This document shows, in pieces, positions 2 through 33,088 of a stretch of 36,711 nucleotides of DNA. Position numbers and translations under genes: made by a program. The stretch is from the sequence record SRR31147125_413, one strand, 5' to 3'. The notes below the pieces were generated by a model. It ran no database searches, had not been told where the DNA came from, and saw only the letters and a program-made list of their open reading frames with translations. Position 1 is the stretch's first letter; each line of letters begins with the position of its first letter.

Positions 2-1024
2 GTTGATGGTATTCATTTTGATGATTATTTCTATTCTTATAATGGTATGAGTGATGCACAAGATGCATCAGCATATAATAAATATGCAAATGACGGAGAA
101 TCACTTGCTGATTTTAGAAGAAGAAATGTGGATACTTTAATTGAAGGATTACATACACTCATTGACCAAACGAATACAAATCAAGATAAAACAATTGAAT
201 TTGGTGTTTCACCATTTGGTATTTGGTCATCAACTGAAGCGGAAGGATCAAATACATCACCATATACACTTCAAAGCTATAGTGATCAGTATGCAGATAC
301 AAAGAAATGGGTTGAAGAAGGATGGTTAGATTACATCTTACCGCAGCTTTACTGGGAATTTGATCACTCATCAGCACCATATGCTGATTTAGTTGACTGG
401 TGGGCTGAACTTTGTGAAGCAAATGATGTTGACCTCATTATTGGTCATGGCTTTTATCGCTATGCTGATGATTCATGGGATTTCCAAAATGAATTCATCG
501 AGCAAATTAGATATGCTAATCAATATGATGCAGTTATAGGGAGTGCGTTATTCTCTTATAAAACACTAAATAGTGCACATACGAATGTGGTTGCAACCAT
601 CGAAAGGCTACAAGATACATACTGGACAACTTATCCAAGTTTCCCTTGGGAAAGTGATGTTGTTAAAGTTGAACCTCTTGATGAACCATCATATATGATG
701 AGTGGTCAACAAAACGATGATGATGCATATGAAAATGAAGTGAGTATAGTACTTACATCAGATGAAGATATTTATTATCAAATCAATGATGGTGAGTGGT
801 TATTATATAATCAATCTATTTTAATTGATGAGGCAGGAACTTATCGACTTGGATTTAAAGCATCAAATAATCAAGTTGAAAGTGATGAAGTTGTTTTAAA
901 CTTTACGATTGTTGAAATAGAAGATGATGAAAATACACTTAACCCGATTGTGATTATTGCCCCATCATCAGTAGGAGTCATTGCGTTAGGTGCGTGGATA
1001 TGGATCAAAAAATTCAAAAAATAA
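2..1024 (+). CDS. GHL10/DUF187 (YddW/DigH-like) glycoside hydrolase, membrane-anchored; 5' partial
   Basis: Frame is open from base 2 and reads VDGIHFDDYFY before the Met at 47. Also FGVSPFGIW, YADTKKW and LDYILPQLYW, typical of GHL10. A beta-sandwich-like tail, hydrophobic C-terminal helix and KKFKK follow. Confidence 0.88.
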   Translation, partial: VDGIHFDDYFYSYNGMSDAQDASAYNKYANDGESLADFRRRNVDTLIEGLHTLIDQTNTNQDKTIEFGVSPFGIWSSTEAEGSNTSPYTLQSYSDQYADTKKWVEEGWLDYILPQLYWEFDHSSAPYADLVDWWAELCEANDVDLIIGHGFYRYADDSWDFQNEFIEQIRYANQYDAVIGSALFSYKTLNSAHTNVVATIERLQDTYWTTYPSFPWESDVVKVEPLDEPSYMMSGQQNDDDAYENEVSIVLTSDEDIYYQINDGEWLLYNQSILIDEAGTYRLGFKASNNQVESDEVVLNFTIVEIEDDENTLNPIVIIAPSSVGVIALGAWIWIKKFKK

Positions 1025-2039
1025 AAGATTATATGGATGAAGGCATTAGGAAAAGAGATTTTCCTGGTGTCTCTATTGCCATGTCTATTGATGGAGAAGT
1101 TGCATCTATCCATAGAGGATATAAGCAACTTATGCCACAACTAGTGACATTAGATGATCATTGCGTCTATGATATAGCATCACTGACGAAAGTTATGTTT
1201 ACCACTACTGCAATCATGCAATTAATTGAAAAGGATAAATTAAAATTGGATACAAACATCAGTGATGTACTTCATTGGTTTAAACATAAAGATTTAACGA
1301 TTTATGATCTACTTATTCATAGTTCAGGTTTGCCTGCTGACATAAAAAAAGTTATACATATCAGCATAAAAATCAAATCATTGATACCATCAAAGATATG
1401 GATAAGATTTATCACAAACATGAACACATTGTTTATTCTGATGTAGGATTTATCTTATTAGGACTTATGATTGAAAAAGTAACTGATATGTCACTTGACC
1501 AATATGGAAAAAAATATATCTTTGAACCACTTCAAATGTATCATACAACATATCATCCTATCAAAGATATATGTGCACCGACTGAATATAGAAGTGATGA
1601 AACGTATGAAGGTATGTTGCAAGGAATTGTGCATGATGAGAAAGCTTTTGCTTTAGGTGAAGCGGGACATGCAGGGTTATTTTCTACATCAAGTGATTTG
1701 CTAAAATTTTGTCAATCATTATTAAATGATGAAAAGATACTCAAACGATCGAGTATTGAACAATTACAAGCCATACAAATGACTAAGCCTGATTTAAATG
1801 GCATATTGAAATCAAGAGCACTAGGATGGCAAAAACCTACAGGGACAACTTATGGTGGCAAATACATTGATCCAGATACAGTGCTCATGCATACTGGATT
1901 TACGGGTTGTCATATGGTCATAGATTTTAAATCAAATACAGCTTATGTTGCATTAAGTAATGCGATACATCCAAAAAGAACACTTAATCGTATCATTAAA
2001 TATCGAGAAACATTATCAAATATCATTATGGGAGCGTGA
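1000..2039 (+). pseudogene. Beta-lactamase-fold serine hydrolase (AmiE-like muropeptide amidase candidate); frameshifted as sequenced
   Basis: ORF 994-1446 has SxxK (DIASLTK) and LLIHSSGLP. ORF 1398-2039 has YSDVGF, GIVHDE, GHAGLFS and HTGFTG. One extra A in the A7 run at 1344-1350 joins them (PADIKKSYTYQHKNQ). Likely ATG at 1000 after AGGTG. No signal peptide. Confidence 0.8.
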
Positions 2040-2043
2040 ATTT

Positions 2044-5000
2044 ATGAGAAAAATATTATTTATACTAAGTCTTGTGTTTGCAAGTGTTATATTAATTAGT
2101 TGTAGTAATCCTACAATTGATTTAGACACAAAAACAATCACAGTAGAAGTAGGAGATACTTATCAACTTGATGCAAATGCATCAGATGATAGTGAACTCA
2201 TGTTTGAAACTAGCGATTCATCTATACTCACAATTAGTGACTCAGGTTTAATATCTGCTGTTAAAGCAGGCGATGCAACAGTAACTATATCACTAAAATC
2301 TGATGAAGATATATCAGTAACAGTAAATGTCACCGTTGTTTTAACACATTATGTGGACACAGATGACACTGAGTTAGTGGTTGTTGCTGATCATATGATT
2401 GATATTGATTTTGATGCATCTGGTGATGTTGATCTATCAAGTAGTGATACATCAATCTTTGTGATTGAAGATGGCAAAGTCAAAGGTGTATCTGAAGGTG
2501 TAGCAATACTGACAATTGCATTACAATCAGATGCAACCATTAAACAAGAAGTATCAATTACAGTGACTAAAAATGTGATGTTATCTATTGATGAACCACT
2601 TAATGAATTATATGTTGGAGAACAAAGAGTACTTATGTTTGAATCAAATGATGATGTAACTTTTGAATCATCTGATACATCAGTTGCAACCATTGATGCA
2701 AATGGTACGTTAGATGTACTTGCACTTGGACAAGTAACGATTTCAGTTGTCTCAACTTATGATACAACAATTAAAACATCAATGACATTTGATGTACTAG
2801 ATGCACCTGCTTCATTAGATATTGTTGGTGATGAACAAATGATGATTGATGATACGAGTGCTTTAAGTATTACATCAAATGATGCATCATATAAAGGTGT
2901 CATCTGGAGTTCTAGTAACGAAGAGATTGCAACAATTAATGCACTTGGTGAAATCACAGCGTTACAACCAGGACAAATCACATTTAGTGCAACATCAAAA
3001 GCAGATGATGATATCACTGCAACACATGATATGGAAATATTGAATGCAGTTGTTGTAAAAAGTGATGCACAATCAGGAGATACTTATACACATCTTGGAT
3101 TTGACTATGTATATGGGGAAAGACTTTATACGTCTATAAGCCAAGCATTAGAAAATATTAGTGAAAACACACTTATCTTATTAACTGATGGTCTTTATGA
3201 TGAACTTATTGAAATTGATGTTAATGGGACAACTTTAAAAGCAATCGATACAGCGACTATTTCTAGTATTGTATCTGTTGATGCTGATGATGTGACATTA
3301 AGTGAATTAAGTTTTGTTAATCAAGGACGTGTATTAAATACAAACCCTATTAAAAATTTTACGTTTAATAGAAATGAAGCAACAGCGCTTCAATCACTTG
3401 ATGGTGCATTTATGTCACTTAATCATGTCGATGGATTGATCATTAACAACAATAACTTCTATGCATTTACAGGACAAGCGATTCAACTTGATGATGTCAT
3501 GATCAGTCACACTGAACTTACACATAATCAATTTACAAATATAACAAAAGCATTTGCTTTTGATTATAATGTGGCATCTACACTTGATGCAACACTTTTA
3601 ATTGAGAGAAATATTATCACACAAGTTGTTGATGCGATGGATATTTTAATTGATGAATCAGTCAATGTTAACTCATATATTAGATTTAATGAAGTCTCAG
3701 CTTATAGTGGCTATGCGCTTTATGCAATGGAAAATAACTCATTAGATGCAACACTTAACTACTGGGGAACTGAAACACTTGATATGCAAAAATTTGTGAA
3801 TTTAAGTGATATGCAATTAAGAGGTTATTACGATAATCCATCAGATATCATTAGTGAAGATGATTTTGATCCAGAAATTCCAGTTAAAATATTACCAGAT
3901 CAAGAAGAAATAGACATGATCTTAGGTGAAGAAGCACAAATCACATTTACTGTATTACCAAGTACAGCTTCAACATCTAGAGTTAAATTTATCACATCTG
4001 ATTCTGATACACTTAGAATTAACACAGCAGGTGATTTAAATCCGCTTACAAGTGGACAAGCAACGATTACACTAAGATTATCAAGTGATTTCTCAATCAA
4101 TGCTCAAGTCGTTGTAAATATTACAACAACACCGGGTATTGAATTAAAACCAGATATGGTTTCATCGGGTGTAGAAGTTGGTGATTTGTTCATACTAGAA
4201 GCAACACCTTTCCCACTAGATATAGAAGATGCTGATGTAACACTGACATCAAGTGATCCAATGATTGCGACCATTGATCAATTAGGTGTTGTTGAAGCAA
4301 AACAAGCAGGACTTGTCACATTTACTGCAACACTTGATGATGATACAAGTGTGACACAAACATTTACGATTGAAATCTATGATGAACTTGATGATAATAA
4401 CCTACTTGACTTACTCACAAATTATCAAGTGAGTTATACAACACCACATGAGTGGATTGCTTATGGTACAAGTTATAACTATTATGATTTTAAATATGAA
4501 AGTGTATCTAAATATTACTTTGATGATGTAGAAATCAATCAAAGTAAAATGCTAGATATTAGTACAGGTATTAGACCAGGAGAACCATTTGATGATCTTC
4601 CAGCAGGAGTGACACAATATAATCCATATAACGTTTATTGGGTTGTTGTTCATGACACAGCTAATACATCAACTGGTGCAGGCGCACTCTCTCATGCAAA
4701 CTACTTATGGAATGCTGCATCTAATGGTACACAATTATGGACATCATGGCATTTCTCAATTGATGACCAAGAACTCTACCAACATCTTCCAGAAACTGAA
4801 AGAGGATATCATGCAGGTGATGGTTCATCTCAACCGCTTCAAGGATCAACATATCTAGGTGGTGGTAATCGTAATGGTATCGGTATTGAAATGGGTGTTA
4901 ATGATGATGCTGATGTTTACCGTACATGGCAACGTACTGCAAAACTTGTCGCATCTCTACTAACTAAATATGATTTACCAAGAGAAAACATGAAATATCA

Positions 5001-5280
5001 TAATGACTTTAGTGGTAAAGACTGTCCTAAAACACTTAGAAATGCTGGACTCATCCCACTATTTGAAGAATTCCAAGATATTGAATACAAAGTAGCCGAC
5101 GACTTTAGTGATGCAACCATCACATTCGAGTCACACAACCCAGAATACTTAGATAACACAGGTAGAATCATTGATATGCCTGATCGTGCAATGACTGTCA
5201 GTTATACAGTGACAGTGACTCAAAATGGTGAGTCAGTTGCACGTACATTCTATAGCTACTTACCAGGCACAGTACACTAG
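2044..5280 (+). CDS. Lipoprotein N-acetylmuramoyl-L-alanine amidase (C-terminal Amidase_2) with multiple Ig-like (Big_2) repeats and a beta-helix-like middle region
   Basis: ATG 2044 after GGAG; lipobox-like ILISC. Repeated W/F-x-SSD-x-x-IATID Ig motifs. C-terminal VVVHDTAN, SWHFSIDD, YHAGDG, GIGIEM and YHNDFSGKDCP zinc amidase motifs. Confidence 0.9.
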   Translation: MRKILFILSLVFASVILISCSNPTIDLDTKTITVEVGDTYQLDANASDDSELMFETSDSSILTISDSGLISAVKAGDATVTISLKSDEDISVTVNVTVVLTHYVDTDDTELVVVADHMIDIDFDASGDVDLSSSDTSIFVIEDGKVKGVSEGVAILTIALQSDATIKQEVSITVTKNVMLSIDEPLNELYVGEQRVLMFESNDDVTFESSDTSVATIDANGTLDVLALGQVTISVVSTYDTTIKTSMTFDVLDAPASLDIVGDEQMMIDDTSALSITSNDASYKGVIWSSSNEEIATINALGEITALQPGQITFSATSKADDDITATHDMEILNAVVVKSDAQSGDTYTHLGFDYVYGERLYTSISQALENISENTLILLTDGLYDELIEIDVNGTTLKAIDTATISSIVSVDADDVTLSELSFVNQGRVLNTNPIKNFTFNRNEATALQSLDGAFMSLNHVDGLIINNNNFYAFTGQAIQLDDVMISHTELTHNQFTNITKAFAFDYNVASTLDATLLIERNIITQVVDAMDILIDESVNVNSYIRFNEVSAYSGYALYAMENNSLDATLNYWGTETLDMQKFVNLSDMQLRGYYDNPSDIISEDDFDPEIPVKILPDQEEIDMILGEEAQITFTVLPSTASTSRVKFITSDSDTLRINTAGDLNPLTSGQATITLRLSSDFSINAQVVVNITTTPGIELKPDMVSSGVEVGDLFILEATPFPLDIEDADVTLTSSDPMIATIDQLGVVEAKQAGLVTFTATLDDDTSVTQTFTIEIYDELDDNNLLDLLTNYQVSYTTPHEWIAYGTSYNYYDFKYESVSKYYFDDVEINQSKMLDISTGIRPGEPFDDLPAGVTQYNPYNVYWVVVHDTANTSTGAGALSHANYLWNAASNGTQLWTSWHFSIDDQELYQHLPETERGYHAGDGSSQPLQGSTYLGGGNRNGIGIEMGVNDDADVYRTWQRTAKLVASLLTKYDLPRENMKYHNDFSGKDCPKTLRNAGLIPLFEEFQDIEYKVADDFSDATITFESHNPEYLDNTGRIIDMPDRAMTVSYTVTVTQNGESVARTFYSYLPGTVH

Positions 5281-5345
5281 AACTTGAAAAAATTATTCAA
5301 TAGTTGTAAAAACAAAGAACAACGCTGGCAATTTAAGAAATTCAA

Positions 5346-5374: not shown

Positions 5375-5400
5375 GAACGTATACAAACGAGGAGGAAAAT

Positions 5401-7776
5401 ATGAAAAAAATAGTAACAGTTTTATTATTAAGTATTTTTGTTTTCGCAGCATATGGTATGAACCATGTACAAGCTGCAGAAGATGATCTTATTGATTTAT
5501 ATCCATGGGATCAAAAAGGGACACTAGATGGCAGTGAACCTTATACACAAACATTAGTTGGTGATTCTAACTGGGATTTCGTGTATGGTGGATATAGATA
5601 TCATGTTGTTAAAGATTCAGCAAGATATGTGACTGAATTTAATGATGATGACTCTAATGGTTACATTAGTGCTATCGAAATGACTGGTATGAGTTGGAAT
5701 GCATTTGCTTCATTAATTATTAATGATACAGAAGATACAGTGGTATTAGAAACTGCAAGCTCAAGAACTGACTTAACACAAGTTGTTCATAGAAAATATG
5801 CATATTTTGATGAAAATGGTGCATTACAAATGTTTGAAGACCACATTAGTGCATATTACATTCACAATGATGGAACAAACGAAGCTCCTGATTGGCGTCT
5901 AGCTACTCAAGCAGAAAAAGATGCTTATGATGCTGCAGCAGATCCTGCTGTTGATACACCAATGACAAGAGCAACTCACATCCGTATGGCACTTGATTCA
6001 AGTGATGCTGATGGATACGTAGTTGAACCTTTAGGATATCTTAAATGGACAAATGCTGATGTAGATACTGCAACTGCTGATATGGAAGATTGGTCATCAA
6101 TTGTTGATGGGAATCCTGACTTTGTGACAATCCCTGCGGGTTGGACAACTGTAAGTTTTGGTACATTAGACCGTGGTTCAGCAAATGCTAAAACTACTGA
6201 ATATATTACAATGTTCCCTGAATTTATGATTGATGAAGATATTGAACCATTCTATACAGAGTATACAAATCAACCTGCATCATTTGATGGATTAACTGCG
6301 CTTGATAATGATTTAGCAACTGATGGTATTAATATCGTTGTTGATTATAATTCAGTATTTGAATTACCTAATACAGTATCAGCATCTTGGTTAGATATGT
6401 TTGATGAAAATGATAAAATCATCAACAGTACTGAAAAAATAGATTTCTCAGTAACTATTTCTCAAGATGGCACTGATTTACAAACAATAGATTATGTTTT
6501 TGATTCAGAAACTGATTTATACACTGCAAGTGCTGCAGTGAATGTTATTGATTCAAGTGTATTTGGTTCAGGTTATAAAGCTGTTTGGTCAGCAACTACA
6601 CCTGAAGGTGATTTACAAGAAGTTGAAGCAGATATCGTTATCGGTGTTATGCCACCTACATTTAGTGGTGTTGTTGACCGTTTCGGTGATCAAGGTGTCT
6701 TTATCGACTTATTAGAAGGCGTTACAGCTGATGATGGTTATGGTAATAGTAAAACTGATGATATTGTTGTTTCATATCCTTCAAACTTTAATCCTTATTA
6801 TCCAATGCCTGGAACTTACCAAATTGATTTAGAATTTAATCATCATGTACATTTTGAAGGTGTTGATCCTGAAATTACAATTAAAGCAGAAGTGATTGCT
6901 TTTGATCCTGATGAAAGATTAAATGCTGATGTAGATATTAATACATTAAGTGCATCTGGTGATTATGCGATTTGGACAGAAATTGACAATTTCACTGATT
7001 CAGCTTCAAGCTGGGGTTCAGTTATCGTTGTTGTTGCTGCTGATGGTACAATGAAAGAACGTTATGACAGATATACTTGGGAACATACTACAAGTACTGG
7101 TACAGTTGTTGGTGATGCAAACTTATTCGCTGCATGGCAAGCTGCGCTTACACTTGAAGAAGATGAATTCATTATTGCAACTCATGGTTCAAATAATGCA
7201 CCAAGATTACGTTCAGGTAATTTAGCATTTGGTGATAGTTTATCATTTGAAGTTGGTAAACCTGATGAAGATTTTGATATCTTAACAAATGCTTCATACG
7301 AATTAGTCATTGATGATTTAACTGCACCAACATTAATCGTATTAGATGATGAATTTGCAATTGAAAGTGATGATTTTGATTCAGTAAATGATGCTATTTT
7401 AGCAAATGTTGCTGCATACGATTATACTGATGCTGCAGATGACTTAGCAGTTTATGTATCTGATAATGGTGGACTTGATTTAGCTACTGCTGGTGTTTAT
7501 ACAGTTGAAGTGACTGTAGAAGATGCTGCTGGTAATTCAGATGTTCGTTCATTTGATGTGACTGTTAAAGAAGCTAAACCATCTAGTTCAGATGTTCAAG
7601 ATTTAATTGATGATCAAAAAGTAACTGATGATGATATTCAAGCGTTAATTGATGCTGCGATTGATGATCTTCCAGAAGATGAAAAAGGCGCAACTGTAGG
7701 TGTAACAATTATTGTTGCAGTACTTGCATCAGCTGCATCATTTGGTGCTTCATTCTTCTTAATTAAAAAGAAATAA
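5401..7776 (+). CDS. Acidic surface protein of unknown function with Ig-like (DUF5011/HYR-like) modules and C-terminal membrane anchor
   Basis: Sec signal peptide (VQA-AE). Ig-like motifs PPTFSGV...GVTADDGYG and DDLTAPTL...VEDAAGN. C-terminal TM helix plus KKK; no LPxTG. Confidence 0.75.
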   Translation: MKKIVTVLLLSIFVFAAYGMNHVQAAEDDLIDLYPWDQKGTLDGSEPYTQTLVGDSNWDFVYGGYRYHVVKDSARYVTEFNDDDSNGYISAIEMTGMSWNAFASLIINDTEDTVVLETASSRTDLTQVVHRKYAYFDENGALQMFEDHISAYYIHNDGTNEAPDWRLATQAEKDAYDAAADPAVDTPMTRATHIRMALDSSDADGYVVEPLGYLKWTNADVDTATADMEDWSSIVDGNPDFVTIPAGWTTVSFGTLDRGSANAKTTEYITMFPEFMIDEDIEPFYTEYTNQPASFDGLTALDNDLATDGINIVVDYNSVFELPNTVSASWLDMFDENDKIINSTEKIDFSVTISQDGTDLQTIDYVFDSETDLYTASAAVNVIDSSVFGSGYKAVWSATTPEGDLQEVEADIVIGVMPPTFSGVVDRFGDQGVFIDLLEGVTADDGYGNSKTDDIVVSYPSNFNPYYPMPGTYQIDLEFNHHVHFEGVDPEITIKAEVIAFDPDERLNADVDINTLSASGDYAIWTEIDNFTDSASSWGSVIVVVAADGTMKERYDRYTWEHTTSTGTVVGDANLFAAWQAALTLEEDEFIIATHGSNNAPRLRSGNLAFGDSLSFEVGKPDEDFDILTNASYELVIDDLTAPTLIVLDDEFAIESDDFDSVNDAILANVAAYDYTDAADDLAVYVSDNGGLDLATAGVYTVEVTVEDAAGNSDVRSFDVTVKEAKPSSSDVQDLIDDQKVTDDDIQALIDAAIDDLPEDEKGATVGVTIIVAVLASAASFGASFFLIKKK

Positions 7777-7806
7777 TATTATTCTAAACGCTTAATAATT
7801 TCGATT

Positions 7807-9571: not shown

Positions 9572-9592
9572 CATTTAAAGGGAGTGCAAACA

Positions 9593-13446: not shown

Positions 13447-13447
13447 G

Positions 13448-14334: not shown

Positions 14335-14341
14335 GAGGCCG

Positions 14342-16442: not shown

Positions 16443-16452
16443 AGGGAGACTT

Positions 16453-24306: not shown

Positions 24307-25217
24307 AAAAATATATAATTAGTGTTGATGGTGGAGGCACCAAAACAAATGGTGTACTCTATGATATAAAAGGAAAACCTTTAAAAGAAGAAACGTCAGG
24401 ATATACAAATTTCTATGTCAATGAAACGATTGCACGTAAGCATTTGTTTCAAGTACTAGATGGATTAACACTTGGACTAGTTAAACCTTATCAGTTAGTC
24501 ATCATACTTGGTATATCAGGCAGTACAGGAACAAATAAAGAAGCACTAGAAACTGAGATTAATCAAAAATATCATGCATGTACGTATTTATATAGTGATG
24601 ATATATTAGCACTTCATAGTGTCAAAAAGAATCAAGATATGCAAGTGATTTTGATGATTGGTGGAACAGGTTCATCCATCACATATACATCGGATGACAC
24701 CGTTGCACAAATTGGTGGTTTTGGTCATCTTTTAGGTGATGAAGGATCTGCATATCATGCAAGTATTAAAGCATTGAAATATGTGATTAGACAAATTGAA
24801 GCTAAAGAGCCACTGTCTCTTTTAAGTAAAGAAATATTAAGTTATATGGATGGTTCAACAAAAGATGACATTAAATCATTTGTCTATGGTCATGAAAAAA
24901 CTAAAATTGCTGAAATTGCGACAGTCATTGATCAGTGTGCTAGAAAAAATGATTATACTGCTCAAGAAATTATTAAAAAAGAAGCACAAGAAGCAGCAAG
25001 GCAAATTATTTATGCATACAAAAACATGGATAAACCAGAACGTCTTATCATTGCTCTAAGAGGTGGATTCATTACGAAAGCATATCAAATCGAAGATGTC
25101 TTAACAAAATCACTCGATCAAACAATTATGCACTATCAGTTAGACAAGCAAGCAATACTGCCAACCATCGGTGGTTATTACATGGGGATAAAAATTTTAG
25201 AAAAAGGTGATTGTTAA
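24303..25217 (+). CDS. BadF/BcrAD-type amino sugar kinase (MurK-like MurNAc/GlcNAc kinase)
   Basis: VDGGGTKT, IGGTGS and GGFGHLLGDEGSAY motifs; lies between nagZ and murQ. Confidence 0.85.
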   Translation: MKKYIISVDGGGTKTNGVLYDIKGKPLKEETSGYTNFYVNETIARKHLFQVLDGLTLGLVKPYQLVIILGISGSTGTNKEALETEINQKYHACTYLYSDDILALHSVKKNQDMQVILMIGGTGSSITYTSDDTVAQIGGFGHLLGDEGSAYHASIKALKYVIRQIEAKEPLSLLSKEILSYMDGSTKDDIKSFVYGHEKTKIAEIATVIDQCARKNDYTAQEIIKKEAQEAARQIIYAYKNMDKPERLIIALRGGFITKAYQIEDVLTKSLDQTIMHYQLDKQAILPTIGGYYMGIKILEKGDC

Positions 25218-26119
25218 TGGAACTACATAAAATAAGCACTGAAAAAAGAAATCATAAAACTAAAAATATTGATATATTATCAACTAAACAAATATGTCAA
25301 CTCATTAATGAAGAAGATAAAACAATCGCTTTTGCAGTAGAAAAGGTTATTGATCGTATTGCAGAAGTTGTTGATTTGGTCACTAAAACTTTTCAAAATG
25401 GAGGACGCCTTATCTATATAGGCGCTGGCACAAGTGGAAGACTTGGTGTCTTAGACGCGAGTGAATGTCCACCTACTTTTGGCGTTGATCATAATATGGT
25501 CGTCGGATTGATTGCTGGTGGTGATCATGCGTTACGTTTTGCAGTCGAAGATGTTGAAGATTCATTAGAAGTTGCAAAAGAAGATTTAAAAAACATTGAT
25601 TTAACAAAGAATGATTTTGTTATTGGTATTGCAGCAAGTGGAAGAACACCATATGTTATTGGCGGACTATCCTATGCACGTGAAGTTGGATGTTTAACAG
25701 GATGTATAACAACGAGTGAAAATTCAAAAGTTGCATCAATTTCTCATTATCCAATAGAAGTGATTACAGGTGCTGAACCACTCACTGGATCAACACGTAT
25801 GAAAAGTGGTACCGCACAAAAAATGGTCTTAAATATGATCACAACAACATCAATGGTTAAAATAGGTAAAGTTTATGAAAATTTAATGATTGATGTTCAA
25901 ATGAATAATCAAAAATTAGTATCAAGAGCACAAACAATTGTCATGGATGTCACAGGTGTCAATCTAGATATTGCTCAAAAGTATTTAGAAAAATATGGAT
26001 CGGTTAAATTTGCGATTTTTGCAATACTTAGTAAGATTGATGATTTGCATGAAATCAAACATATTCTTGATCAACATGATGGCAATATTAGGGAATCATT
26101 AAAAAACAACATAAAGTAG
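25217..26119 (+). CDS. murQ: N-acetylmuramic acid 6-phosphate etherase
   Basis: TE.RN, GAGTSGRLGVLDASECPPTF, GIAASGRTPYV and GSTRMKSGTAQK. ATG 25217 follows AAGGTG. Confidence 0.97.
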   Translation: MELHKISTEKRNHKTKNIDILSTKQICQLINEEDKTIAFAVEKVIDRIAEVVDLVTKTFQNGGRLIYIGAGTSGRLGVLDASECPPTFGVDHNMVVGLIAGGDHALRFAVEDVEDSLEVAKEDLKNIDLTKNDFVIGIAASGRTPYVIGGLSYAREVGCLTGCITTSENSKVASISHYPIEVITGAEPLTGSTRMKSGTAQKMVLNMITTTSMVKIGKVYENLMIDVQMNNQKLVSRAQTIVMDVTGVNLDIAQKYLEKYGSVKFAIFAILSKIDDLHEIKHILDQHDGNIRESLKNNIK

Positions 26120-26128
26120 GGAAAACAC

Positions 26129-26850
26129 ATGAAAATTATCAAATGTGATCACTATGATGATATGAGTGAAAAAGCAGCACAAATCATCATCAGTGATATG
26201 AAAGAAAAAAAGAATATTGTCTTAGGACTTGCAACTGGATCAACACCTCTAGGACTATATAAAACTCTTATAAAAGCATATCAAAAACAAGAAATTTCTT
26301 TTAGAGATGTAATGACTTTCAATTTAGATGAATATATTGGCATAAGTCAAAATCATCAGGAAAGTTATTATCAATACATGATGAATCATTTATTCAAACA
26401 CGTGGATATAAAAAAGAAAATATCAACTTACCGAATAACGATAAAGACCAAATCAAAGCACATATCGATGCATACAATCAAAAAATGAAACAACATCCGA
26501 TTGATGTTCAAGTTTTAGGGATTGGTGAAAATGGACATATTGGGTTTAATGAACCAGGCACACCATTTGAAAATGAGACGTTTATTGTTGATTTAGATGA
26601 AGATACAAGAATAGCAAATCAAAGATTTTTTAATTCACTTGATGAAGTACCTAAAAAAGCAATGACCATGGGTATTAAAAATATTATGAGAAGTAAAAAA
26701 ATCATTTTACTTGCATCAGGTATCAAAAAAGCAGAAGCTATTCAGGAAATGATTGAAGGTCCAGTAACAACAATGCATCCTGCATCCATTTTACAACTTC
26801 ATCCAAACGTAATTGTTTGTGTTGATCAAGAAGCAGGGTCATTGATTTAG
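26129..26850 (+). pseudogene. nagB: Glucosamine-6-phosphate deaminase; frameshifted as sequenced
   Basis: GLATGSTP and FNLDEY in ORF 26129-26488; LGIGENGHIGFNEP and PASILQLH in ORF 26485-26850. One extra A in A6 at 26410-26415 gives HVDIKKENINLP and a full-length NagB. Confidence 0.93.
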
Positions 26851-27468
26851 ATGAAAGTTTTATTCTTTGGAGATAGTATCACTGAAGCGCATCGACAAGT
26901 ATTGAATCCTTTGGATCTTGGATATGGTTTTGTTAAATTATTAAGTGATCAATATCCACACATTCAATTTGTAAATCGAGGTATAAGTGGACATAAAACC
27001 ACAGATTTATTACACCGGTTTGAAAGAGATGTCGTACTTGAAAAACCTGACATAGTTTTTCTATTTGTAGGTATCAATGATGCGTGGCACCCACATCTTC
27101 ATCAATATCATTTTAATTTCAATGATTTTTTAACACAATATAAAGCATTGGTTAAAAGACTTTTACATGTCAAAACAATAAAGCATCTATATCTTGTCCT
27201 ACCACATGTATTTAAAATACATCATATTGACCAAGATACATTTGATGATATTGAATTAGTTAGAAAAGAGATTCTAAAATATTCACATAAATATGAATTA
27301 TCATGTGTAAGTTTTGATGAAAAGTTTGAAATAGCACTTAAAACAATAGAACCATCTAGAATTTTAGGTGATGGTGTTCATCCAACTGCCCTTGGATATG
27401 AATTGATGTATGAAGTTTTTGTGGATTTTATAGAGAATGAAAATAGTTTAGTAGAGGTAGAAAAATGA
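26851..27468 (+). CDS. SGNH/GDSL hydrolase (acetylesterase-like)
   Basis: Blocks GDSIT, NRGISG, GIND and DGVHP; no signal peptide. Confidence 0.88.
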   Translation: MKVLFFGDSITEAHRQVLNPLDLGYGFVKLLSDQYPHIQFVNRGISGHKTTDLLHRFERDVVLEKPDIVFLFVGINDAWHPHLHQYHFNFNDFLTQYKALVKRLLHVKTIKHLYLVLPHVFKIHHIDQDTFDDIELVRKEILKYSHKYELSCVSFDEKFEIALKTIEPSRILGDGVHPTALGYELMYEVFVDFIENENSLVEVEK

Positions 27469-28316
27469 AATTATTAAAAGAAAAAGCTGAATTTTATGTA
27501 TGTGATGAAACACCAATTGAACAAGCGATTGAAAGAACAACACATATGAGTATAGCAGCACACCAAGATGATATAGAAATTATGGCATATGAAGGTATTT
27601 CAACATGCTTTAACAATGAAAATAATTGGTTTTTTGGTGTTGTTGTGACTAATGGTGCTGGTTCATCTAGAATTGGTGAATATGCCAACTATACAAATGA
27701 AGATATGATGAAGATTCGCAAATTAGAACAGAAAAAAGCAGCCTATATTGGAGAATTTGGCGCACTTGCGCTACTGGATCATCCGAGTGCTGAAGTTAAA
27801 CATCCAGATGGTGAAGATGTTGTTGATGAATTAAAAGATTTATTGTACGCAGCTAAACCAAAGATACTCTATACACATAATCTTGCAGATAAACATGATA
27901 CACATATTGGTGTGGCAACAAAAGTCATACGTGCACTTAGAAAACTAGACAAAAAAGATCGTCCAGAAAAAGTCATTGGTTGTGAAGTATGGCGTGATCT
28001 TGACTGGCTACTTGATGGATCTAAAATTAAAATGGATGCAAGTAAACATCCAAATATCGCATCAAGTCTTGTTGAAGTTTTCGATTCTCAAATTATTGGT
28101 GGTAAACGCTATGATTTAGCAGCCATTGGGAGAAGACTAGCGAATGCTACTTTTTCTGAATCACATGCTTCAGATAAATCAAATGCAGTTATTCACGGTA
28201 TGGATTTAACACCATTAATAGAAGATGATAATTTAGATATCGCATCATATATCACTTCTTATATTGATGCATTTAAAGAAGATGTATCACAAAAAATTAA
28301 TAAAATGTTAAAGTAA
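27465..28316 (+). CDS. PIG-L/LmbE family N-deacetylase
   Basis: AAHQDDIE metal motif, VTNG, RKLEQKKA and THNLADKHDTH. Confidence 0.85.
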   Translation: MKLLKEKAEFYVCDETPIEQAIERTTHMSIAAHQDDIEIMAYEGISTCFNNENNWFFGVVVTNGAGSSRIGEYANYTNEDMMKIRKLEQKKAAYIGEFGALALLDHPSAEVKHPDGEDVVDELKDLLYAAKPKILYTHNLADKHDTHIGVATKVIRALRKLDKKDRPEKVIGCEVWRDLDWLLDGSKIKMDASKHPNIASSLVEVFDSQIIGGKRYDLAAIGRRLANATFSESHASDKSNAVIHGMDLTPLIEDDNLDIASYITSYIDAFKEDVSQKINKMLK

Positions 28317-28472
28317 AAGTTATCTTTTTGGATATATACCAAGAGAGAAAAATATTTTTATCTACACCTCATGACTAGAAATAAGACCGAACAAATAAAA
28401 AATATTGGCGATTCATTTTTTATTGATATTGTTTGGTCTCATTTTTAGTTAAAAAACAAAAGGAGTATGTGT

Positions 28473-29864
28473 ATGTATAAAAAAATAACCAAAGCAGATA
28501 TTTTGTATTTTAAAAATATTGAAGGTGTTATTGTAGAAGAAAAAAATGAGATTGACGAAGCATTTTATCATGATGAATTAGGCACAGTATCTCAAGTACC
28601 TGATCTGCATATGTATGTCTATGATAAATATCAAGTCTCTAAAGTCATGCAATATGCATATCAAGAAAGAATATGTGTCACAGTTAGAGGAGCAGGTACT
28701 GGACTTGTTGGTGCAAGCGTAGCTATCCATGGTGGTATTTTACTTGATATGTCAAAAATGAATCAAATAATTGAACTTGACAAGACAAATTTAACACTAA
28801 CCGTTGAACCTGGCGTATTGTTAAAAGATATTTATGCATGTGTTGAATCTGAAAATCTATTTTATGCACCTGATCCTGGACAAAAACTTGCGACTATTGG
28901 TGGCAATATATCAACAAACGCAGGTGGTATGCGTGCCATTAAATATGGTGTGACTAGAGATTGGATTAGAGGACTAGAAGTCGTTCTACCTAATGGAACC
29001 ATTGAACGTTTTGGAGGAAAAGTTGTAAAAAACTCTACAGGTTATGCACTTAAAGACTTAATGATTGGTAGTGAAGGAACACTTGCTATTATTGTTGAAG
29101 CTACTTTAAAACTTATACCTAAACCAAAATATCAAAAAAGTTTGCTTGTTCCATTTAAAAAAGTTGATGATGCCATTAAAGCAGCACCACAAATTATTAT
29201 TAATCACGTCCTACCTACTGCAGTTGAGTATTTAGAAAGACAATCACTACAGTATAGTGAAGCATTTTTAGGTAGAAAAATAGAACATAATGAGTTTGAA
29301 GCTTATTTACTTCTAAGTTATGATGCACACACAAAGGCATCGCTTGATCATGATATTGATCAAGCAAAATCATTACTCATTAACAATTACCATGCACTAG
29401 ATGTTTTTGATGTTGATACATCAAAGAAAAGAAGTGATGTGTGGAATGTGAGAGATGGTTTTTTAGAAGCTATTAAAGCATCGAGTGATACGATTGATGA
29501 ATGTGATGTCGTATTGCCACGTGCTCATATTTATGAGTTTTTATCATTTGTTAATGCACAAAGTAAAGCATTGGATTTACGTATTCCTTATTTTGGACAT
29601 GTAGGTGATGGGAATCTTCATATCTATTTTTGTAAAGACCATATGGATGAAAACATATGGCAAGAAAAAATTCATGAGGGATTTATCAGACTCTATGACA
29701 AAGCGCAATCATTAGGTGGCCTAATCTCAGGTGAGCATGGCATAGGGTATGCGAAGAAATCATATATGAAACGTTTATTAGGAGAACAACAAATACTACT
29801 TATGAAAGGCATCAAAGAAGTATTTGACCCACATTATATATTAAATCCTAGTAAAATCATATAG
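28473..29864 (+). CDS. FAD-linked 2-hydroxyacid oxidoreductase (GlcD/LctD-like; putative D-lactate dehydrogenase)
   Basis: RGAGTGLVG, TIGGNISTNAGG, IGSEGTL, GHVGDGNLH, SGEHGIG and FDP..ILNP. ATG 28473 lies 7 nt after AGGAG. Confidence 0.87.
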   Translation: MYKKITKADILYFKNIEGVIVEEKNEIDEAFYHDELGTVSQVPDLHMYVYDKYQVSKVMQYAYQERICVTVRGAGTGLVGASVAIHGGILLDMSKMNQIIELDKTNLTLTVEPGVLLKDIYACVESENLFYAPDPGQKLATIGGNISTNAGGMRAIKYGVTRDWIRGLEVVLPNGTIERFGGKVVKNSTGYALKDLMIGSEGTLAIIVEATLKLIPKPKYQKSLLVPFKKVDDAIKAAPQIIINHVLPTAVEYLERQSLQYSEAFLGRKIEHNEFEAYLLLSYDAHTKASLDHDIDQAKSLLINNYHALDVFDVDTSKKRSDVWNVRDGFLEAIKASSDTIDECDVVLPRAHIYEFLSFVNAQSKALDLRIPYFGHVGDGNLHIYFCKDHMDENIWQEKIHEGFIRLYDKAQSLGGLISGEHGIGYAKKSYMKRLLGEQQILLMKGIKEVFDPHYILNPSKII

Positions 29865-29888
29865 CGCTTTCATAATTAGTGATATAAT
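29859..29888 (+). promoter_or_regulatory. Extended -10 promoter of the RpiR gene with a partial cre-like site
   Basis: TGATATAAT at 29880-29888; ATATAGCGCTTTCA at 29859-29872. Confidence 0.5.
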
Positions 29889-29910
29889 ACACATATAACA
29901 ACAATTAGAG

Positions 29911-30765
29911 GTGAACAATTTGAGCGTAGTCATAAATATGTTGAAGTACAAAGATGAACTAAGTATTGCAGAAAGAGCAGTTTTAGACTATTTATTAGAA
30001 AATAAATCAGTCTTAAACGATTTTAGTGTTGAAAAAATTGCAGAAGCTGCCTATACATCTCCAGCATCAGTTGTACGTATGTGTAAAAAGATGGGTTATA
30101 AAGGATTTAAAGACTTTAAGATAGACTTTATTTTATCAAATGCTAAAGTAGAAATGCCTGATAATAAAGAATATGTTGACGTTGTTTTAAATAAGGATGA
30201 AAACTGTGGGAGATCTGCGATAGAGAATAATATTAGAGCATTGGAAGATACCTTAAATCTTTATGATAAAGAAGCCATCACAAAAGCTGCTGGTATTATT
30301 ATGAATGCTAGAAAAATATTAATTTTTGGTAAAGGTTCTTCATTTTTAGTGTGTAAAGACTTAGAAATGAAACTTAGACGTATTGATAAATTTTGTATTG
30401 CACAAGGTGAGTCACATGATCAGTTGATTGATGCAACTTTTATCAATCAAAAAGATGTTGTCATATTTATTTCTAATTCAGGTAAAACAAAGGAAATTGT
30501 TAGTGCAGCATTAGTCGCAAGACAAAATCATGCTAAAATTATTAGCATTACAAAAATTGGAAGCTCACTACTTGCAGATATGAGCGATGTCGTACTTTAT
30601 ACCTCATCACTAGAAGGTGAGTTTAGAAGTGCTGCGATGACTTCTAGAATTTCACAAATGTGCTTAGTTGATGCATTATTTGCAAGATGTACGTATACGA
30701 ATTTCGAACGATCAGTAAATAAATTAGAAATGACTTATAAGACTTTTAAAAAATTTAAGCGATAG
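29911..30765 (+). CDS. MurR/RpiR family transcriptional regulator
   Basis: HTH region SPASVVRMCKKMGYKGFKDFK; SIS domain FGKGSS, ISNSGKTKE and AMTSRISQ. Confidence 0.93.
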   Translation: MNNLSVVINMLKYKDELSIAERAVLDYLLENKSVLNDFSVEKIAEAAYTSPASVVRMCKKMGYKGFKDFKIDFILSNAKVEMPDNKEYVDVVLNKDENCGRSAIENNIRALEDTLNLYDKEAITKAAGIIMNARKILIFGKGSSFLVCKDLEMKLRRIDKFCIAQGESHDQLIDATFINQKDVVIFISNSGKTKEIVSAALVARQNHAKIISITKIGSSLLADMSDVVLYTSSLEGEFRSAAMTSRISQMCLVDALFARCTYTNFERSVNKLEMTYKTFKKFKR

Positions 30766-30768
30766 TTT

Positions 30769-30797
30769 AAGAGTTGACATGAAGTCAACTCTTTTTT
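30769..30797 (+). terminator. Intrinsic terminator
   Basis: AAGAGTTGAC-ATGAA-GTCAACTCTT followed by a T run. Confidence 0.75.
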
Positions 30798-30815
30798 ATA
30801 TAATTGGAGGAAAAT

Positions 30816-31280
30816 ATGGGTGTTAATTCAAAAGATATGTTAGTAGATTTATATCAAGATATATTCACAGAAGTTAAATGTGATTATGAAATTAAAAGGT
30901 TATTATCACCAAATAGTGATGATTTAGTTGCATTTGTGTTAAAGCATTTTTCAAAAACTTGGGCATCTGAAATTAAAGCAGCGATTTATAAAAACAATCC
31001 AAATTGTTGGATTGCAGTTTATAATCGTGAAATTGTAGGTTTTGCTTGTTATGATGCAACAGCTAAAGGTTATTTTGGACCTACTGGTGTTGATGAAGCA
31101 CATCGTGGACATAAAATAGGTAAAGCATTACTGATGCATTCACTTAAATCACTTAAAGATGAAGGTTATGGATATGCCATTATAGGTGGTGTTGAACCTC
31201 ATAATTTTGCTTTTTATGAAAAAACATGTCAAGCTGTTGTCATTGAAAATAGTAAAAAGATATATACTAGAATGGTGTAA
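30816..31280 (+). CDS. GNAT family N-acetyltransferase
   Basis: ATG 30816 after GGAGG; GYFGPTGVDEAHRGHKIGKALL acetyl-CoA motif and FYEK. Confidence 0.85.
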   Translation: MGVNSKDMLVDLYQDIFTEVKCDYEIKRLLSPNSDDLVAFVLKHFSKTWASEIKAAIYKNNPNCWIAVYNREIVGFACYDATAKGYFGPTGVDEAHRGHKIGKALLMHSLKSLKDEGYGYAIIGGVEPHNFAFYEKTCQAVVIENSKKIYTRMV

Positions 31281-31282
31281 AA

Positions 31283-33088
31283 ATGGATATTATAAGTGAT
31301 ATAGATATTAAACATGGTATTGAAGAAATACAAAAGATGTTTCCTAATTCATTTGTGGATATTAAAGTTATTCAGGTTAAATATCAAATGGAAGAAGCAG
31401 TCTATGTAAATAGAGTGCATGAAAAAGTTGTCATTAGATATCACGAAAAACATCAAGTTTTTTTAGCACTTAAAACACTCATGATTCATGGAAATCATTT
31501 TGAGTCAACGATAAAAGCTAGGATATCAGATTTATCCTATATGGTTGATTGTGCAAGAGGTGCAGTACCAAAGATATCTGCTTTAAAACAATTAGTCGTC
31601 AATCTTTCACTACTTGGGTATCGAAAACTAGGTTTATATGTGGAAGATGTGCTAGTATTACCGGATGAAGAGATGTTTGGTTATATGCGTGGTGCATATC
31701 ATAGTGAAGAAATTAATGAACTCATCACATATGCACAAGCATTTGGGATTAAAGTGGTGCCATACATTCAAACACTTGCACATTTATCACATATCTTTAA
31801 ACATCAAGTCTATCAAGAAATCTGTGATGTGAAAGATATTTTATGTGTTGGAGAAAACAAAACTTATGCACTGATTGAAAAGATGATAGTTTCGGCTAAA
31901 GATATGTTTCAAACACATGAGATTAATATTGGTATGGATGAAGCATGGCAATTAGGTCTTGGGAAATATCTTAAGCAACATGGTTATAAAGATAGATTAA
32001 ATATCATGATGCATCATTTAAAACAGGTTAGTGATATACTAGAAAAACATATGATGAAAGCATCCATGTGGGCAGATATGTTTTTTCTATTAAAAGATGG
32101 GACTTATCTCCTTGATCAACATACAGACTTTAATGATATCAAAAGTGAGGTCCCAAAACATATAAAACTCATTTATTGGGACTATTATCAAAAAGATAAA
32201 AGGAAATATACGCAAAAAATACAATCATTAAAAACACTATCTCAGCACATAGGATTTGCAGGTGGTGCTTGGAAATGGTTGGGGTATGCACCGTTAAATG
32301 CATTTTCAATTGAAACTATCACTGCATCATTTAAGGTTTGTGTAGAAGAAAATATTGACCAATATATATTAACTGCATGGGGTGATAATGGTGCAGAAGC
32401 ATCACTATTTTCAATGATGCCTACGTTAGTAGCTCTATCAGATTTAAACTATGATAGTTCTCATAAGGTCAATGAGACACTTACTTTGCTCACAAATTAT
32501 GATTTGTCTGAGTGGTTACTATTGGACCAATTAAATCATTTATATGAAAGTGATGCATTATACCCAGTAAATCCTTCGAAATATTTATTATTTGAAGATG
32601 TGCTTATGGGGCATCCAAAAATTTATGTCGATCAATCTTATGAAATATACTATACAAAACTCTTAGAAAAGTTAAATACACTCACAAATAGAACATCGAC
32701 ATACCATTATATATTTCAATCGCTTAATGATCTTGTTCATCTATTAGTATATAAATCGTCACTAAGTTTATATGTTTATAATGCATATCATCAAAAGCAT
32801 TCAAGGATGAGTATCATTAACAAAATTGATGCAGTAGAACAAAGGCTCAAAGTGTTTATGCAATCATTTAAAGAACAATGGTATTTAGAAAATAAACGAT
32901 TTGGATATGAAGTACATAGTTACCGTTTAGGTGGCTTACTAAATAGATTAAACGAAGTAAGGGATATATTATTAACAAATGATAGAATTGAAGAATTAGA
33001 ATTAAGAATTATAACAAAGAGACAGCCAGATGATCTTCGTGAAGGATGTCTATATTTTAATCAATTTGATAATTATTATACCTTTTAA
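31283..33088 (+). CDS. GH20 beta-N-acetylhexosaminidase (GcnA-like)
   Basis: MVDCARGAV, LYVED, PYIQTLAH, catalytic INIGMDEA, MWADMFF and TAWGDNGAE; no signal peptide. Confidence 0.88.
   Translation: MDIISDIDIKHGIEEIQKMFPNSFVDIKVIQVKYQMEEAVYVNRVHEKVVIRYHEKHQVFLALKTLMIHGNHFESTIKARISDLSYMVDCARGAVPKISALKQLVVNLSLLGYRKLGLYVEDVLVLPDEEMFGYMRGAYHSEEINELITYAQAFGIKVVPYIQTLAHLSHIFKHQVYQEICDVKDILCVGENKTYALIEKMIVSAKDMFQTHEINIGMDEAWQLGLGKYLKQHGYKDRLNIMMHHLKQVSDILEKHMMKASMWADMFFLLKDGTYLLDQHTDFNDIKSEVPKHIKLIYWDYYQKDKRKYTQKIQSLKTLSQHIGFAGGAWKWLGYAPLNAFSIETITASFKVCVEENIDQYILTAWGDNGAEASLFSMMPTLVALSDLNYDSSHKVNETLTLLTNYDLSEWLLLDQLNHLYESDALYPVNPSKYLLFEDVLMGHPKIYVDQSYEIYYTKLLEKLNTLTNRTSTYHYIFQSLNDLVHLLVYKSSLSLYVYNAYHQKHSRMSIINKIDAVEQRLKVFMQSFKEQWYLENKRFGYEVHSYRLGGLLNRLNEVRDILLTNDRIEELELRIITKRQPDDLREGCLYFNQFDNYYTF

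Follow-up and report, generated by a model that had tools for sequence, protein, structure and literature searches.

The closest described system to the locus considered here is the murQ-murR-murP-amiE-nagZ-namZ operon of Bacillus subtilis, in which AmiE, NagZ and NamZ are secreted and N-acetylmuramic acid (MurNAc) enters the cell through a phosphotransferase system (PTS) (PMC8054146). In a 36,711-base stretch of DNA from sequence record SRR31147125_413 (hereafter the window; 28-36% G+C), positions 2-33088 hold 25 co-oriented genes on the plus strand that, like the B. subtilis operon, bring together MurQ, a MurR/RpiR-family regulator, a beta-lactamase-fold hydrolase that resembles AmiE at the family level, a glycoside hydrolase family 3 (GH3) NagZ and a GH171 NamZ. 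Common to both would be the exo-lytic removal of N-acetylglucosamine (GlcNAc), peptide and MurNAc, followed by the etherase step. In our judgement this locus is likely to serve the foraging and catabolism of peptidoglycan in a wall-less lineage of the Acholeplasmataceae, with the walls of other bacteria as its substrate.

The two systems differ in several respects. The window has no MurP-type PTS, and two ATP-binding cassette (ABC) systems together with a MurK-like kinase stand in its place. Whereas the B. subtilis enzymes are secreted, the NagZ, NamZ and AmiE-like products of the window carry no signal peptides. The window also adds a surface Amidase_2 protein, a DigH-like GHL10 glycosidase, a DUF5696 protein, NagB, an LctD-type dehydrogenase, PIG-L, GDSL and GNAT proteins and a GH20 hexosaminidase. 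Finally, its host lineage appears to make no wall, which would render the pathway purely catabolic. Escherichia coli provides a second point of comparison, as murR and murQ-murP-yfeW place MurQ, MurR and a PBP4B-type gene together; a homologue of E. coli DigH occurs in the window, and AnmK is found in the locus of relatives. In E. coli, however, the genes are scattered, serve the cell's own turnover products and rely on a PTS, whereas here they are gathered with importers and surface enzymes. Tannerella forsythia possesses a transporter-kinase-etherase operon. Like the putative forager described here, it depends on foreign peptidoglycan fragments and uses a MurK kinase route rather than a PTS (PMC7670621), although it salvages MurNAc for its own wall and the Acholeplasmataceae carriers have no wall to build. 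Among wall-less bacteria, murP and murQ were reported from Spiroplasma in 2013-14, and the MurNAc was suggested to derive from bacteria ingested by the host (PMC3762197, PMC3971584). Spiroplasma is thus a Mollicute that likewise keeps MurQ for the MurNAc of other bacteria, but the accounts available describe only a PTS transporter and an etherase for the free sugar, whereas the window would start from the polymer, with surface hydrolases, oligomer import, exo-glycosidases and lactate oxidation.

With respect to the Acholeplasma lineage itself, RNA stable-isotope probing has traced 13C from dead E. coli into free-living Acholeplasma, whose uptake outpaces that of other community members; no mechanism was given, and the word peptidoglycan is absent from the available text (PMC4628116). 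Peptidoglycan was described in a 2020 enrichment study as a slowly degraded part of necromass, whose degraders and extracellular hydrolases in anoxic habitats were then unknown (PMC7511781); in the accessible portion of that study Acholeplasma occurs only within the reference list. The authors of the metagenome-assembled genomes (MAGs) that carry two of the related loci found here (L004 and L006) proposed saprotrophy on dead biomass; the genes that they named for it, in the text available, concern chitin, amylase and glucosidase, and this locus is not among them (PMC8921683). In two surveys of environmental Tenericutes, the sections at hand take up peptidoglycan synthesis only (PMC7301438, PMC7761423), and the corresponding text of PMC8054146 mentions neither Acholeplasma nor Tenericutes nor Mollicutes. 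No such locus appears in the accessible parts of PMC7511781 or PMC11129491, and we found none described in the literature linking Acholeplasma or Mariniplasma with MurNAc, peptidoglycan or necromass, a search that did not extend to the supplementary gene tables of MAG papers, where such genes may be listed. What is already in print, then, are the MurNAc genes of Spiroplasma and the uptake of dead bacteria by Acholeplasma; the parts of the locus are of known kinds, assembled and localized differently from the Bacillus model. The locus would supply a concrete mechanism by which relatives of Acholeplasma live off dead bacteria, in a lineage with cultured members. It also suggests that a 'recycling' pathway has been kept, or acquired, for pure catabolism after wall loss, and it places the unstudied DUF5696 family and a possible substitute for NagA in a defined biochemical context.

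The case begins with the gene content. Within 2-33088 every open reading frame (ORF) of at least 100 residues with a family match lies on the plus strand, and the gaps between ORFs range from -80 to +202 bases. Over the whole window, 27 of the 30 ORF products scanned had a Pfam match at E<=0.001, and names were added from NCBIfam. An earlier, sequence-only reading of the window had listed a single co-oriented run encoding GHL10, Amidase_2, import, NamZ, NagZ, GH20, a kinase, MurQ, NagB, tailoring enzymes and an RpiR regulator, and every one of these families was found. Specifically, NamZ, an exo-beta-N-acetylmuramidase (21594..22736), matches PF07075 at 279 bits and PF20732 at 150 bits, and its gene adjoins and overlaps that of NagZ, a beta-N-acetylglucosaminidase (22726..24306; PF00933, 297.5 bits; NF003740, 221.9 bits against a cut-off of 207). 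The MurNAc-6-phosphate etherase MurQ (25211..26119) scores 405 bits with NF003915 (cut-off 168) and 384.6 bits, again above cut-off, with TIGR00274. MurQ, NagZ and both domains of NamZ thus exceed curated cut-offs, and as family assignments from sequence we regard these three as beyond doubt. Between NagZ and MurQ lies a BadF-type sugar kinase resembling MurK, a MurNAc/GlcNAc kinase (24303..25217; PF01869); the best of its five solved relatives is 8zo3, annotated as 'N-acetylmuramic acid/N-acetylglucosamine kinase' (E 5.8e-22). Its position between these two genes suggests that it would phosphorylate MurNAc at O6. The glucosamine-6-phosphate deaminase NagB follows MurQ (26129..26850, with TIGR00502 matching both halves), and a GH20 beta-N-acetylhexosaminidase of the GH20C type closes the locus (31283..33088; PF00728, PF18088); its best solved relatives are 2epk (E 1.5e-101) and 5a69, labeled 'GH20C' (E 1e-97).

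At the other end of the locus, a beta-lactamase-fold hydrolase (994..2039) matches PF00144 on both of the pieces into which its gene is split. The AmiE-like hydrolase of the sequence-only reading thus holds at the family level only, as the best NCBIfam model is PBP4B (33.6 and 92.2 bits, below cut-off); the E. coli PBP4B gene follows murQ-murP. Topology was read from hydropathy and by eye. On this basis NamZ, NagZ, GH20, the beta-lactamase-fold protein, the kinase, MurQ, NagB, the GDSL and PIG-L proteins, the oxidase, the regulator and the GNAT protein are predicted to be cytoplasmic, and the AmiE-like, NagZ and NamZ products have no N-terminal hydrophobic segment. Predicted to lie outside the membrane are the GHL10 protein, the amidase lipoprotein, a 791-residue protein, both solute-binding proteins, the NHL/TPR protein and the DUF5696 protein.

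A dehydrogenase gene fits the same picture. The product of 28467..29864 (PF01565, PF02913) is a flavin adenine dinucleotide (FAD)-dependent oxidase whose best solved relative is 7qh2_C, the LctD subunit of a lactate dehydrogenase (NAD+, ferredoxin), at E 1.3e-155. GlcD-family enzymes act on D-2-hydroxy acids. Because MurQ releases D-lactate, an LctD-type enzyme would close the carbon balance of the pathway. The reference complex is LctBCD of Acetobacterium woodii (PDB 7qh2); the window differs in that its enzyme sits in a MurNAc locus, where D-lactate would be a by-product of MurQ. An electron-transfer flavoprotein (Etf) alpha gene adjoins the LctD orthologue in a related genome (G001), and the Pfam scan revealed no Etf gene in the window. 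The next gene encodes a MurR/RpiR-family regulator with HTH_6 and SIS domains (29911..30765; PF01418, PF01380), for which the NCBIfam MurR/RpiR models give 137-157 bits, below their cut-offs.

Two surface enzymes would supply this cytoplasmic set. The GHL10 glycosidase at 2..1024, whose 5' end is cut by the edge of the window, matches PF02638 at 89.5 bits and ends in a membrane anchor and a Lys-rich tail. It is 36% identical to E. coli DigH over 203 residues (E 4e-37), and DigH itself is a PF02638 protein (453 bits). According to published work (PMC12288456), DigH follows amidases in its action and hydrolyzes specifically those glycan strands that are denuded (peptide-free). Since such strands are what amidases leave behind, we propose the order amidase, then GHL10, and by this analogy the neighboring Amidase_2 gene fits a GHL10 preference for peptide-free strands. 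That neighbor encodes a Big_2/Amidase_2 surface lipoprotein (2044..5280, within an ORF of 1960-5280) with PF02368 on four stretches and a C-terminal PF01510 domain (68.9 bits). Inspection by eye shows a lipobox-like signal with a terminal Cys as well as the zinc-ligand motifs His/His/Cys, the start codon is likely an internal Met ahead of the lipobox, and the protein is 41-50% identical over its full length to counterparts in three relatives (G001-G003). Cleaving enzymes tethered to a wall-less cell that is itself immune to them might also be read as a bacteriolytic weapon that lyses living neighbors, fragment catabolism being a by-product, and as many as three GHL10 domains, spread over two proteins, occur in relatives. 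We nevertheless judge this very improbable: enzymes of the DigH type prefer denuded strands (PMC12288456) and exo-enzymes make for a slow attack, the Pfam scan found no holin, toxin-delivery or secretion genes in the window, and the sole experimental data available concern killed cells (PMC4628116).

The foraging reading further depends on the lineage of the host, for which the conservation of the locus is informative. Scanning the DUF5696 protein against 185,579 species genomes (one genome per species) revealed 13 related loci, of which 11 are labeled Acholeplasmataceae, Acholeplasma or Mariniplasma, one 'Tenericutes' and one 'Bacillota bacterium'. As far as the contigs reach, the order is kept in all 13: the 791-residue protein, two solute-binding proteins, two permeases, NHL/TPR, Yip1, DUF5696, two permeases, DUF624, NamZ, NagZ, kinase, MurQ and NagB. 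Upstream of this block, all three long contigs examined encode GHL10 enzymes, an intact beta-lactamase-fold hydrolase and the amidase. Placement differs for two genes, those of the LctD-like oxidase and of RpiR, which follow the block in the window and precede it on these three contigs. For the permeases, identities to relatives are 82-88% (12523..13446), 91-93% (13448..14334) and 72-81% (those of the second importer); identities were also determined for the first solute-binding protein (59-68%), the large one (67-77%), NHL/TPR (65-71%), Yip1 (73-80%), DUF5696 (54-62%), NamZ (55-60%), MurQ (68-72%) and RpiR (80-81% in G001-G003). Mapping of the locus across the Acholeplasma order, which the earlier reading had put forward as a check, extends this picture. 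Among 301 genomes of the same GTDB order, NamZ occurs in 58 and MurQ in 60 (E<=1e-30). Every one of the 58 NamZ carriers also has MurQ, and the two genes mostly lie 3-4 kb apart on one contig.

Beyond the locus, three minus-strand genes at 33126-36709 encode a weakly Wzz-like two-helix membrane protein, a 567-residue P-loop protein without a family and a GNAT protein. At E<=1e-20, 157 of the 301 genomes contain a match to the P-loop protein, the best at 81, 75, 75, 74, 71, 71 and 71% identity, and a metagenome scan with the flank protein returned relatives at 42-57% identity, the contig of the window itself not among them. Order and orientation of the trio are kept, at 43, 81 and 73% identity, in G050, a complete genome of the same order in a single 1.84-Mb contig. 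There the trio (L043 8699-12978) is bordered on one side by trigger factor and Lon; on the other, in the position that the locus occupies in the window, is a cluster for capsule or exopolysaccharide synthesis (Wzz, CpsD-like, CpsB, RmlA-type).

These two sets of relatives agree with respect to wall synthesis. MraY and FtsW/RodA were each absent from all five locus carriers examined (G001-G005), with controls positive in 12 and 10, respectively, of 14 named genomes, and MraY, FtsW/RodA and penicillin-binding proteins (PBPs) were each absent from five flank-nearest genomes (G050, G255, G164, G120 and G068). Mur_ligase_M, searched in the five locus carriers only, gave five matches in four genomes; the two that were scanned are FolC (TIGR01499, 348 and 272 bits), and the other three, of 413-416 residues with like scores, were left unscanned. 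A PBP transpeptidase match was found in one of the five carriers, G004, as a 150-residue fragment at the edge of a 2.7-kb contig. This fragment and a second Mur_ligase_M match were considered as a sign of a wall and rejected, as the latter proved to be FolC and the contigs that hold the two are 2.5-2.7 kb long, at 37.5-40% G+C. The two contigs concerned (C112 and C120; L032 and L033), whose genes include a PBP2 fragment next to hrcA and an additional FolC, are probably contamination of the MAG. Judging from relatives and the syntenic flank, we consider it highly likely that the organism of the window is itself wall-less. The sequence-only reading had proposed an Acholeplasma/Izemoplasma-type host. 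The Acholeplasmataceae side of that proposal is supported by the 13 loci, by flank synteny and by the absence of MraY and FtsW/RodA from all 10 relatives examined, whereas Izemoplasma plays no part in the evidence. The clues on which it had leaned (low G+C, code 11, C-terminal anchors and no LPxTG) are consistent with such a host, though weak in themselves. Specifically, long ORFs are read under table 11, ORFs end in TAA (16), TAG (9) or TGA (5), and there are 119 TGG codons; TGA thus serves as a stop, unlike in Mycoplasma and Spiroplasma.

A host lineage devoid of MraY, FtsW/RodA, Mur ligases and PBPs could not be recycling a wall of its own, and we therefore read the locus as catabolic foraging. 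Ordinary recycling of own peptidoglycan in a walled low-G+C Firmicute, as in B. subtilis, would explain why the enzyme families are those of the murQ-murR-murP-amiE-nagZ-namZ operon (PMC8054146), and in G015, which belongs to the same order, consecutive murE-mraY-murD genes occur alongside a diverged copy of the locus (DUF5696 27%, NamZ 50% and MurQ 54% identical to the window). The proteins of G015, however, are 27-71% identical to those of the window, against 54-93% for carriers free of MraY. MraY was detected in 59 of the 301 genomes at E<=0.001 and above cut-off in 45; NamZ occurs in just one of these 45 (G015) and in 57 of the 256 others, so that 57 of the 58 NamZ carriers have no MraY above cut-off. 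In two further NamZ carriers the MraY model scores weakly (43 and 18 bits; cut-off 192). Together with the absence of MraY, FtsW/RodA and PBPs from the complete G050 genome and four other flank-nearest genomes, and of an LPxTG-like motif from all 30 window products, this leaves own-wall recycling with very little probability. A walled Firmicute with a full mur pathway, the case that the earlier reading had named as its own refutation, fits only the diverged carrier G015. In a separate single-contig genome of the order, G243, three adjacent mraY fragments with internal TAG stops were observed (C1:1982772-1983290; 49.7, 31.7 and 25.4 bits); this mraY looks decayed and is possibly a relic of recent wall loss.

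Peptidoglycan sugars could alternatively be a side substrate of a general locus for N-acetylhexosamine (HexNAc) glycans of chitin, host or capsule, built around a DUF5696 transporter cassette for an alpha-linked HexNAc polymer. The DUF5696 protein folds like the GH129 and GH101 alpha-N-acetylgalactosaminidases and belongs to a large family (4219 clusters), GH20, GH3, NagB and PIG-L all suit chitin-type routes, and related Acholeplasma MAGs have been credited with chitin degradation genes (PMC8921683). What speaks against such a locus is the company these genes keep. NamZ, MurQ, the MurK-like kinase, Amidase_2, the DigH homologue, the AmiE/PBP4B-like hydrolase and the lactate dehydrogenase, each specific to MurNAc or peptidoglycan, stand in one run; AnmK is present in the locus of relatives; NamZ and MurQ occur together in 58 of 58 NamZ carriers; and the Pfam scan found no chitinase of family GH18 or GH19 in the window. 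A general HexNAc locus is accordingly unlikely in our estimation, and peptidoglycan foraging remains the reading we prefer.

The genes between the surface enzymes and NamZ are devoted largely to import. First in order are a solute-binding lipoprotein with an N-terminal Ig-like domain (7979..9532; PF16403, PF01547, PF13416), a large membrane-anchored solute-binding protein of 975 residues (9584..12511; PF01547 and PF13416 at residues 582-880) and the two ABC permeases of the first importer (12523..13446 and 13448..14334, both PF00528; the latter's listed ORF is 13585-14334). The 550-residue N-terminal extension of the 975-residue protein contains two repeated modules with sub-threshold Golvesin_C and CBM_35 signals (9584-11300) and may be a glycan-capture domain fused to a transporter binding protein. 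The second importer is represented by two further permeases (19035-19961 and 19951-20949; PF00528 on both), followed by a DUF624/MusI-like membrane protein, an accessory of sugar ABC systems (21011..21601; PF04854; MusI_fam 48 bits, below cut-off). No PTS family was detected among the 30 ORF products by either Pfam or NCBIfam.

Lying between the two sets of permeases is a central block that was absent from the first reading. It consists of an NHL-repeat/TPR protein (14342..15811; PF01436, PF07719 and PF13414, all weak), which has a signal sequence and, at its C-terminus, a membrane segment; a Yip1-domain membrane protein (15783..16442; PF04893, 51.5 bits); and the DUF5696 protein (16453..19038; PF18952, 540.6 bits), which is anchored in the membrane by its N-terminus and predicted to be an extracellular glycoside hydrolase resembling those of GH129. 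DUF5696 was unmentioned in the literature searched for the term, a single-sequence search gave no solved relative, and a search of the ESM Atlas gave only the family itself, which comprises 4219 representative clusters at E<=0.001. An AlphaFold2 model built on 83 diverse family members has a predicted local distance difference test score (pLDDT) of 91.7 and a predicted TM-score (pTM) of 0.90. An alignment of 11 close sequences, from which locus L009 was left out as its match contains six stops, had given a pLDDT of 45 and was discarded. In the model, a (beta/alpha)8 barrel is flanked by a beta-sandwich on either side. Foldseek placed GH129 at the top of its matches (5opq/8rzk, E 6e-30; NagBb 5wzq, E 1e-22), followed by GH101 and GH36, all of which we take to be alpha-glycosidases. 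The family profile also matches 8rzk (E 7.6e-12, in three short stretches only that exclude the catalytic region) and 5wzn (E 4.4e-6). The three-domain fold is shared with GH129, as represented by the 3,6-anhydro-D-galactosidase ZgGH129 and the alpha-N-acetylgalactosaminidase NagBb of Bifidobacterium (target-normalized TM-score 0.67-0.73), whereas sequence identity is just 12-13% and the N-terminal membrane anchor is a feature of DUF5696. On the strength of this model, we propose that DUF5696 is a GH129-like glycosidase, an assignment that is new here, and that it is a remote relative of GH129 and not a member, in keeping with its separate Pfam family PF18952. D346, D719 and E757, all acidic and near-invariant, are candidate active-site residues. 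Since the closest folds are those of alpha-glycosidases, the substrate may be a polymer attached to the wall and not the beta-1,4 glycan.

Taken together, these elements would combine into the following route. At the cell surface, the Amidase_2 lipoprotein would strip stem peptides off foreign peptidoglycan, and the anchored DigH-like GHL10 enzyme would then cut the denuded strands; for both, the family is observed and the substrate is our proposal. The DUF5696, NHL/TPR and Yip1 proteins, encoded between the importers, probably process or capture further wall-derived glycan. Oligosaccharides and muropeptides would be imported via the two binding-protein-dependent ABC systems. In the cytoplasm, where the missing signal peptides would place them, NagZ, NamZ and GH20 would take GlcNAc and MurNAc from the non-reducing end, and the AmiE/PBP4B-like hydrolase would remove the remaining peptides. 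The MurK-like kinase would yield MurNAc-6-phosphate and GlcNAc-6-phosphate, MurQ would convert MurNAc-6-phosphate to GlcNAc-6-phosphate and D-lactate, and the LctD-type dehydrogenase would oxidize the lactate to pyruvate. A deacetylase (probably PIG-L) and then NagB would deliver fructose-6-phosphate into glycolysis. By analogy with known systems, a MurR/RpiR repressor sensing MurNAc-6-phosphate may control the set. A more far-reaching version, in which roughly one-fifth of Acholeplasmatales species are specialist consumers of whole sacculi, peptidoglycan and attached polymers alike, by means of this locus, DUF5696 with NHL/TPR and Yip1 acts on a wall-linked alpha-HexNAc polymer and PIG-L takes the place of NagA, is one that we offer tentatively and consider doubtful as a whole.

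Several observations weigh against the foraging reading or limit its reach. The wall-lessness of the host derives from relatives and the flank and not from the window's own genome, and the wall genes of G015 mean that this type of locus is not exclusive to wall-less cells. When eight locus proteins were concatenated for a maximum-likelihood tree, the window formed a long branch (0.4) within a polytomy, left unresolved, that it shares with the lineages of the related loci; in the same tree it is far from the walled carrier G015 (branch 1.92). The seven flank-nearest genomes (71-81% identity) are not among the carriers of NamZ or MurQ, which implies that the locus is patchy even among close relatives. 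There is no ABC ATPase in the window. GH20, NagZ, NagB and PIG-L suit chitin or other HexNAc glycans equally well, and the closest folds of DUF5696 are those of alpha-glycosidases, a mismatch with the beta-1,4-linked glycan of peptidoglycan. Finally, the earlier description of the locus as near-complete holds for the parts that are present but not for the NagA step: canonical NagA was not found in the window by NCBIfam and was above cut-off in none of the five locus carriers, in which the best match to the NagA model, at 21.8 bits, is a generic amidohydrolase. The step from GlcNAc-6-phosphate to glucosamine-6-phosphate is consequently unproven.

A candidate for this step is the PIG-L/LmbE-family de-N-acetylase (27465..28316; PF02585, 53 bits). 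All five relatives have an orthologue at 63-75% identity, which in three of them lies no more than about 4 kb from the locus, and a sequence search gave no solved relative. We suggest, as a candidate role that is new here, that this deacetylase replaces NagA between MurQ and NagB. The gene between NagB and PIG-L encodes a cytoplasmic GDSL esterase (26851..27468; PF13472, PF00657), which is a candidate O-acetyl esterase for O-acetylated muropeptides; G001 has a GDSL gene of 31% identity in the vicinity of its locus.

With respect to the integrity of the pathway, two genes of the window are divided between ORFs in differing frames, namely NagB (26129-26488 and 26485-26850) and the beta-lactamase-fold gene (994-1446 and 1398-2039), and the listed permease ORF 13585-14334 lacks its N-terminus and first membrane helix, which the 297-residue ORF of a 93%-identical relative possesses. 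Each break sits at a run of A. We aligned to positions 13000-32900 contigs from four public runs, each of a different study and one of them the probable source at about 320x depth; the comparison consists of short-read contigs only, and its depth is uninformative on expression or copy number. In all four runs the contigs have one extra A behind positions 13495, 20951 and 26409. The extra base restores a whole permease and a whole NagB (site 20951 is intergenic), and NagB is an intact 240-residue ORF in the relative G001. The breaks in NagB and the permease are errors of the window sequence, specifically homopolymer deletions, and true pseudogenization of either gene, which had been considered, was rejected in view of the extra A in all four runs. 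The break in the beta-lactamase-fold gene, at the A7 run 1344-1350, lies outside the compared stretch; by arithmetic a single additional base would bring the two frames together, G001 has the gene as an unbroken ORF of 352 residues, and the break is probably an error of the same kind. Because the breaks are homopolymer deletions of the assembly, the pathway does not appear to be decaying.

Two genes of the run remain. The 791-residue surface protein at 5401..7776 starts with a signal peptide, ends in a membrane anchor and gives a weak Ig-like signal, and it is kept at the same position in relatives. It has no Pfam match at E<=0.001 (only sub-threshold Ig-like signals) and no PDB sequence match; scores of up to 0.84 to Ig-like surface proteins in the ESM Atlas serve as a lead only. 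A GNAT acetyltransferase (30804..31280; PF00583) is encoded between the regulator and GH20.

The locus of G001 and its surroundings (L026 11031-13512, L038 567-7124) extend the gene content seen in the window. The locus also encodes AnmK (338 bits), a GH4 protein and an HI0933-like flavoprotein, and in this setting AnmK makes sense only for anhydro-muropeptides shed by other bacteria. Slightly beyond the locus of the same genome are a NAGPA-type phosphodiester glycosidase, a ROK protein, PIG-L and GDSL. The NAGPA-type glycosidase could release polymers joined to MurNAc via GlcNAc-1-phosphate.

Ten public runs, from three studies other than the probable source, contain 61-67% of the 31-letter words sampled from positions 21000-30900, and these runs are labeled sand metagenome, aquatic viral metagenome or named organism B. 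Contigs from three of the ten match the stretch mostly at 95-99%, which points to close strains in several habitats.

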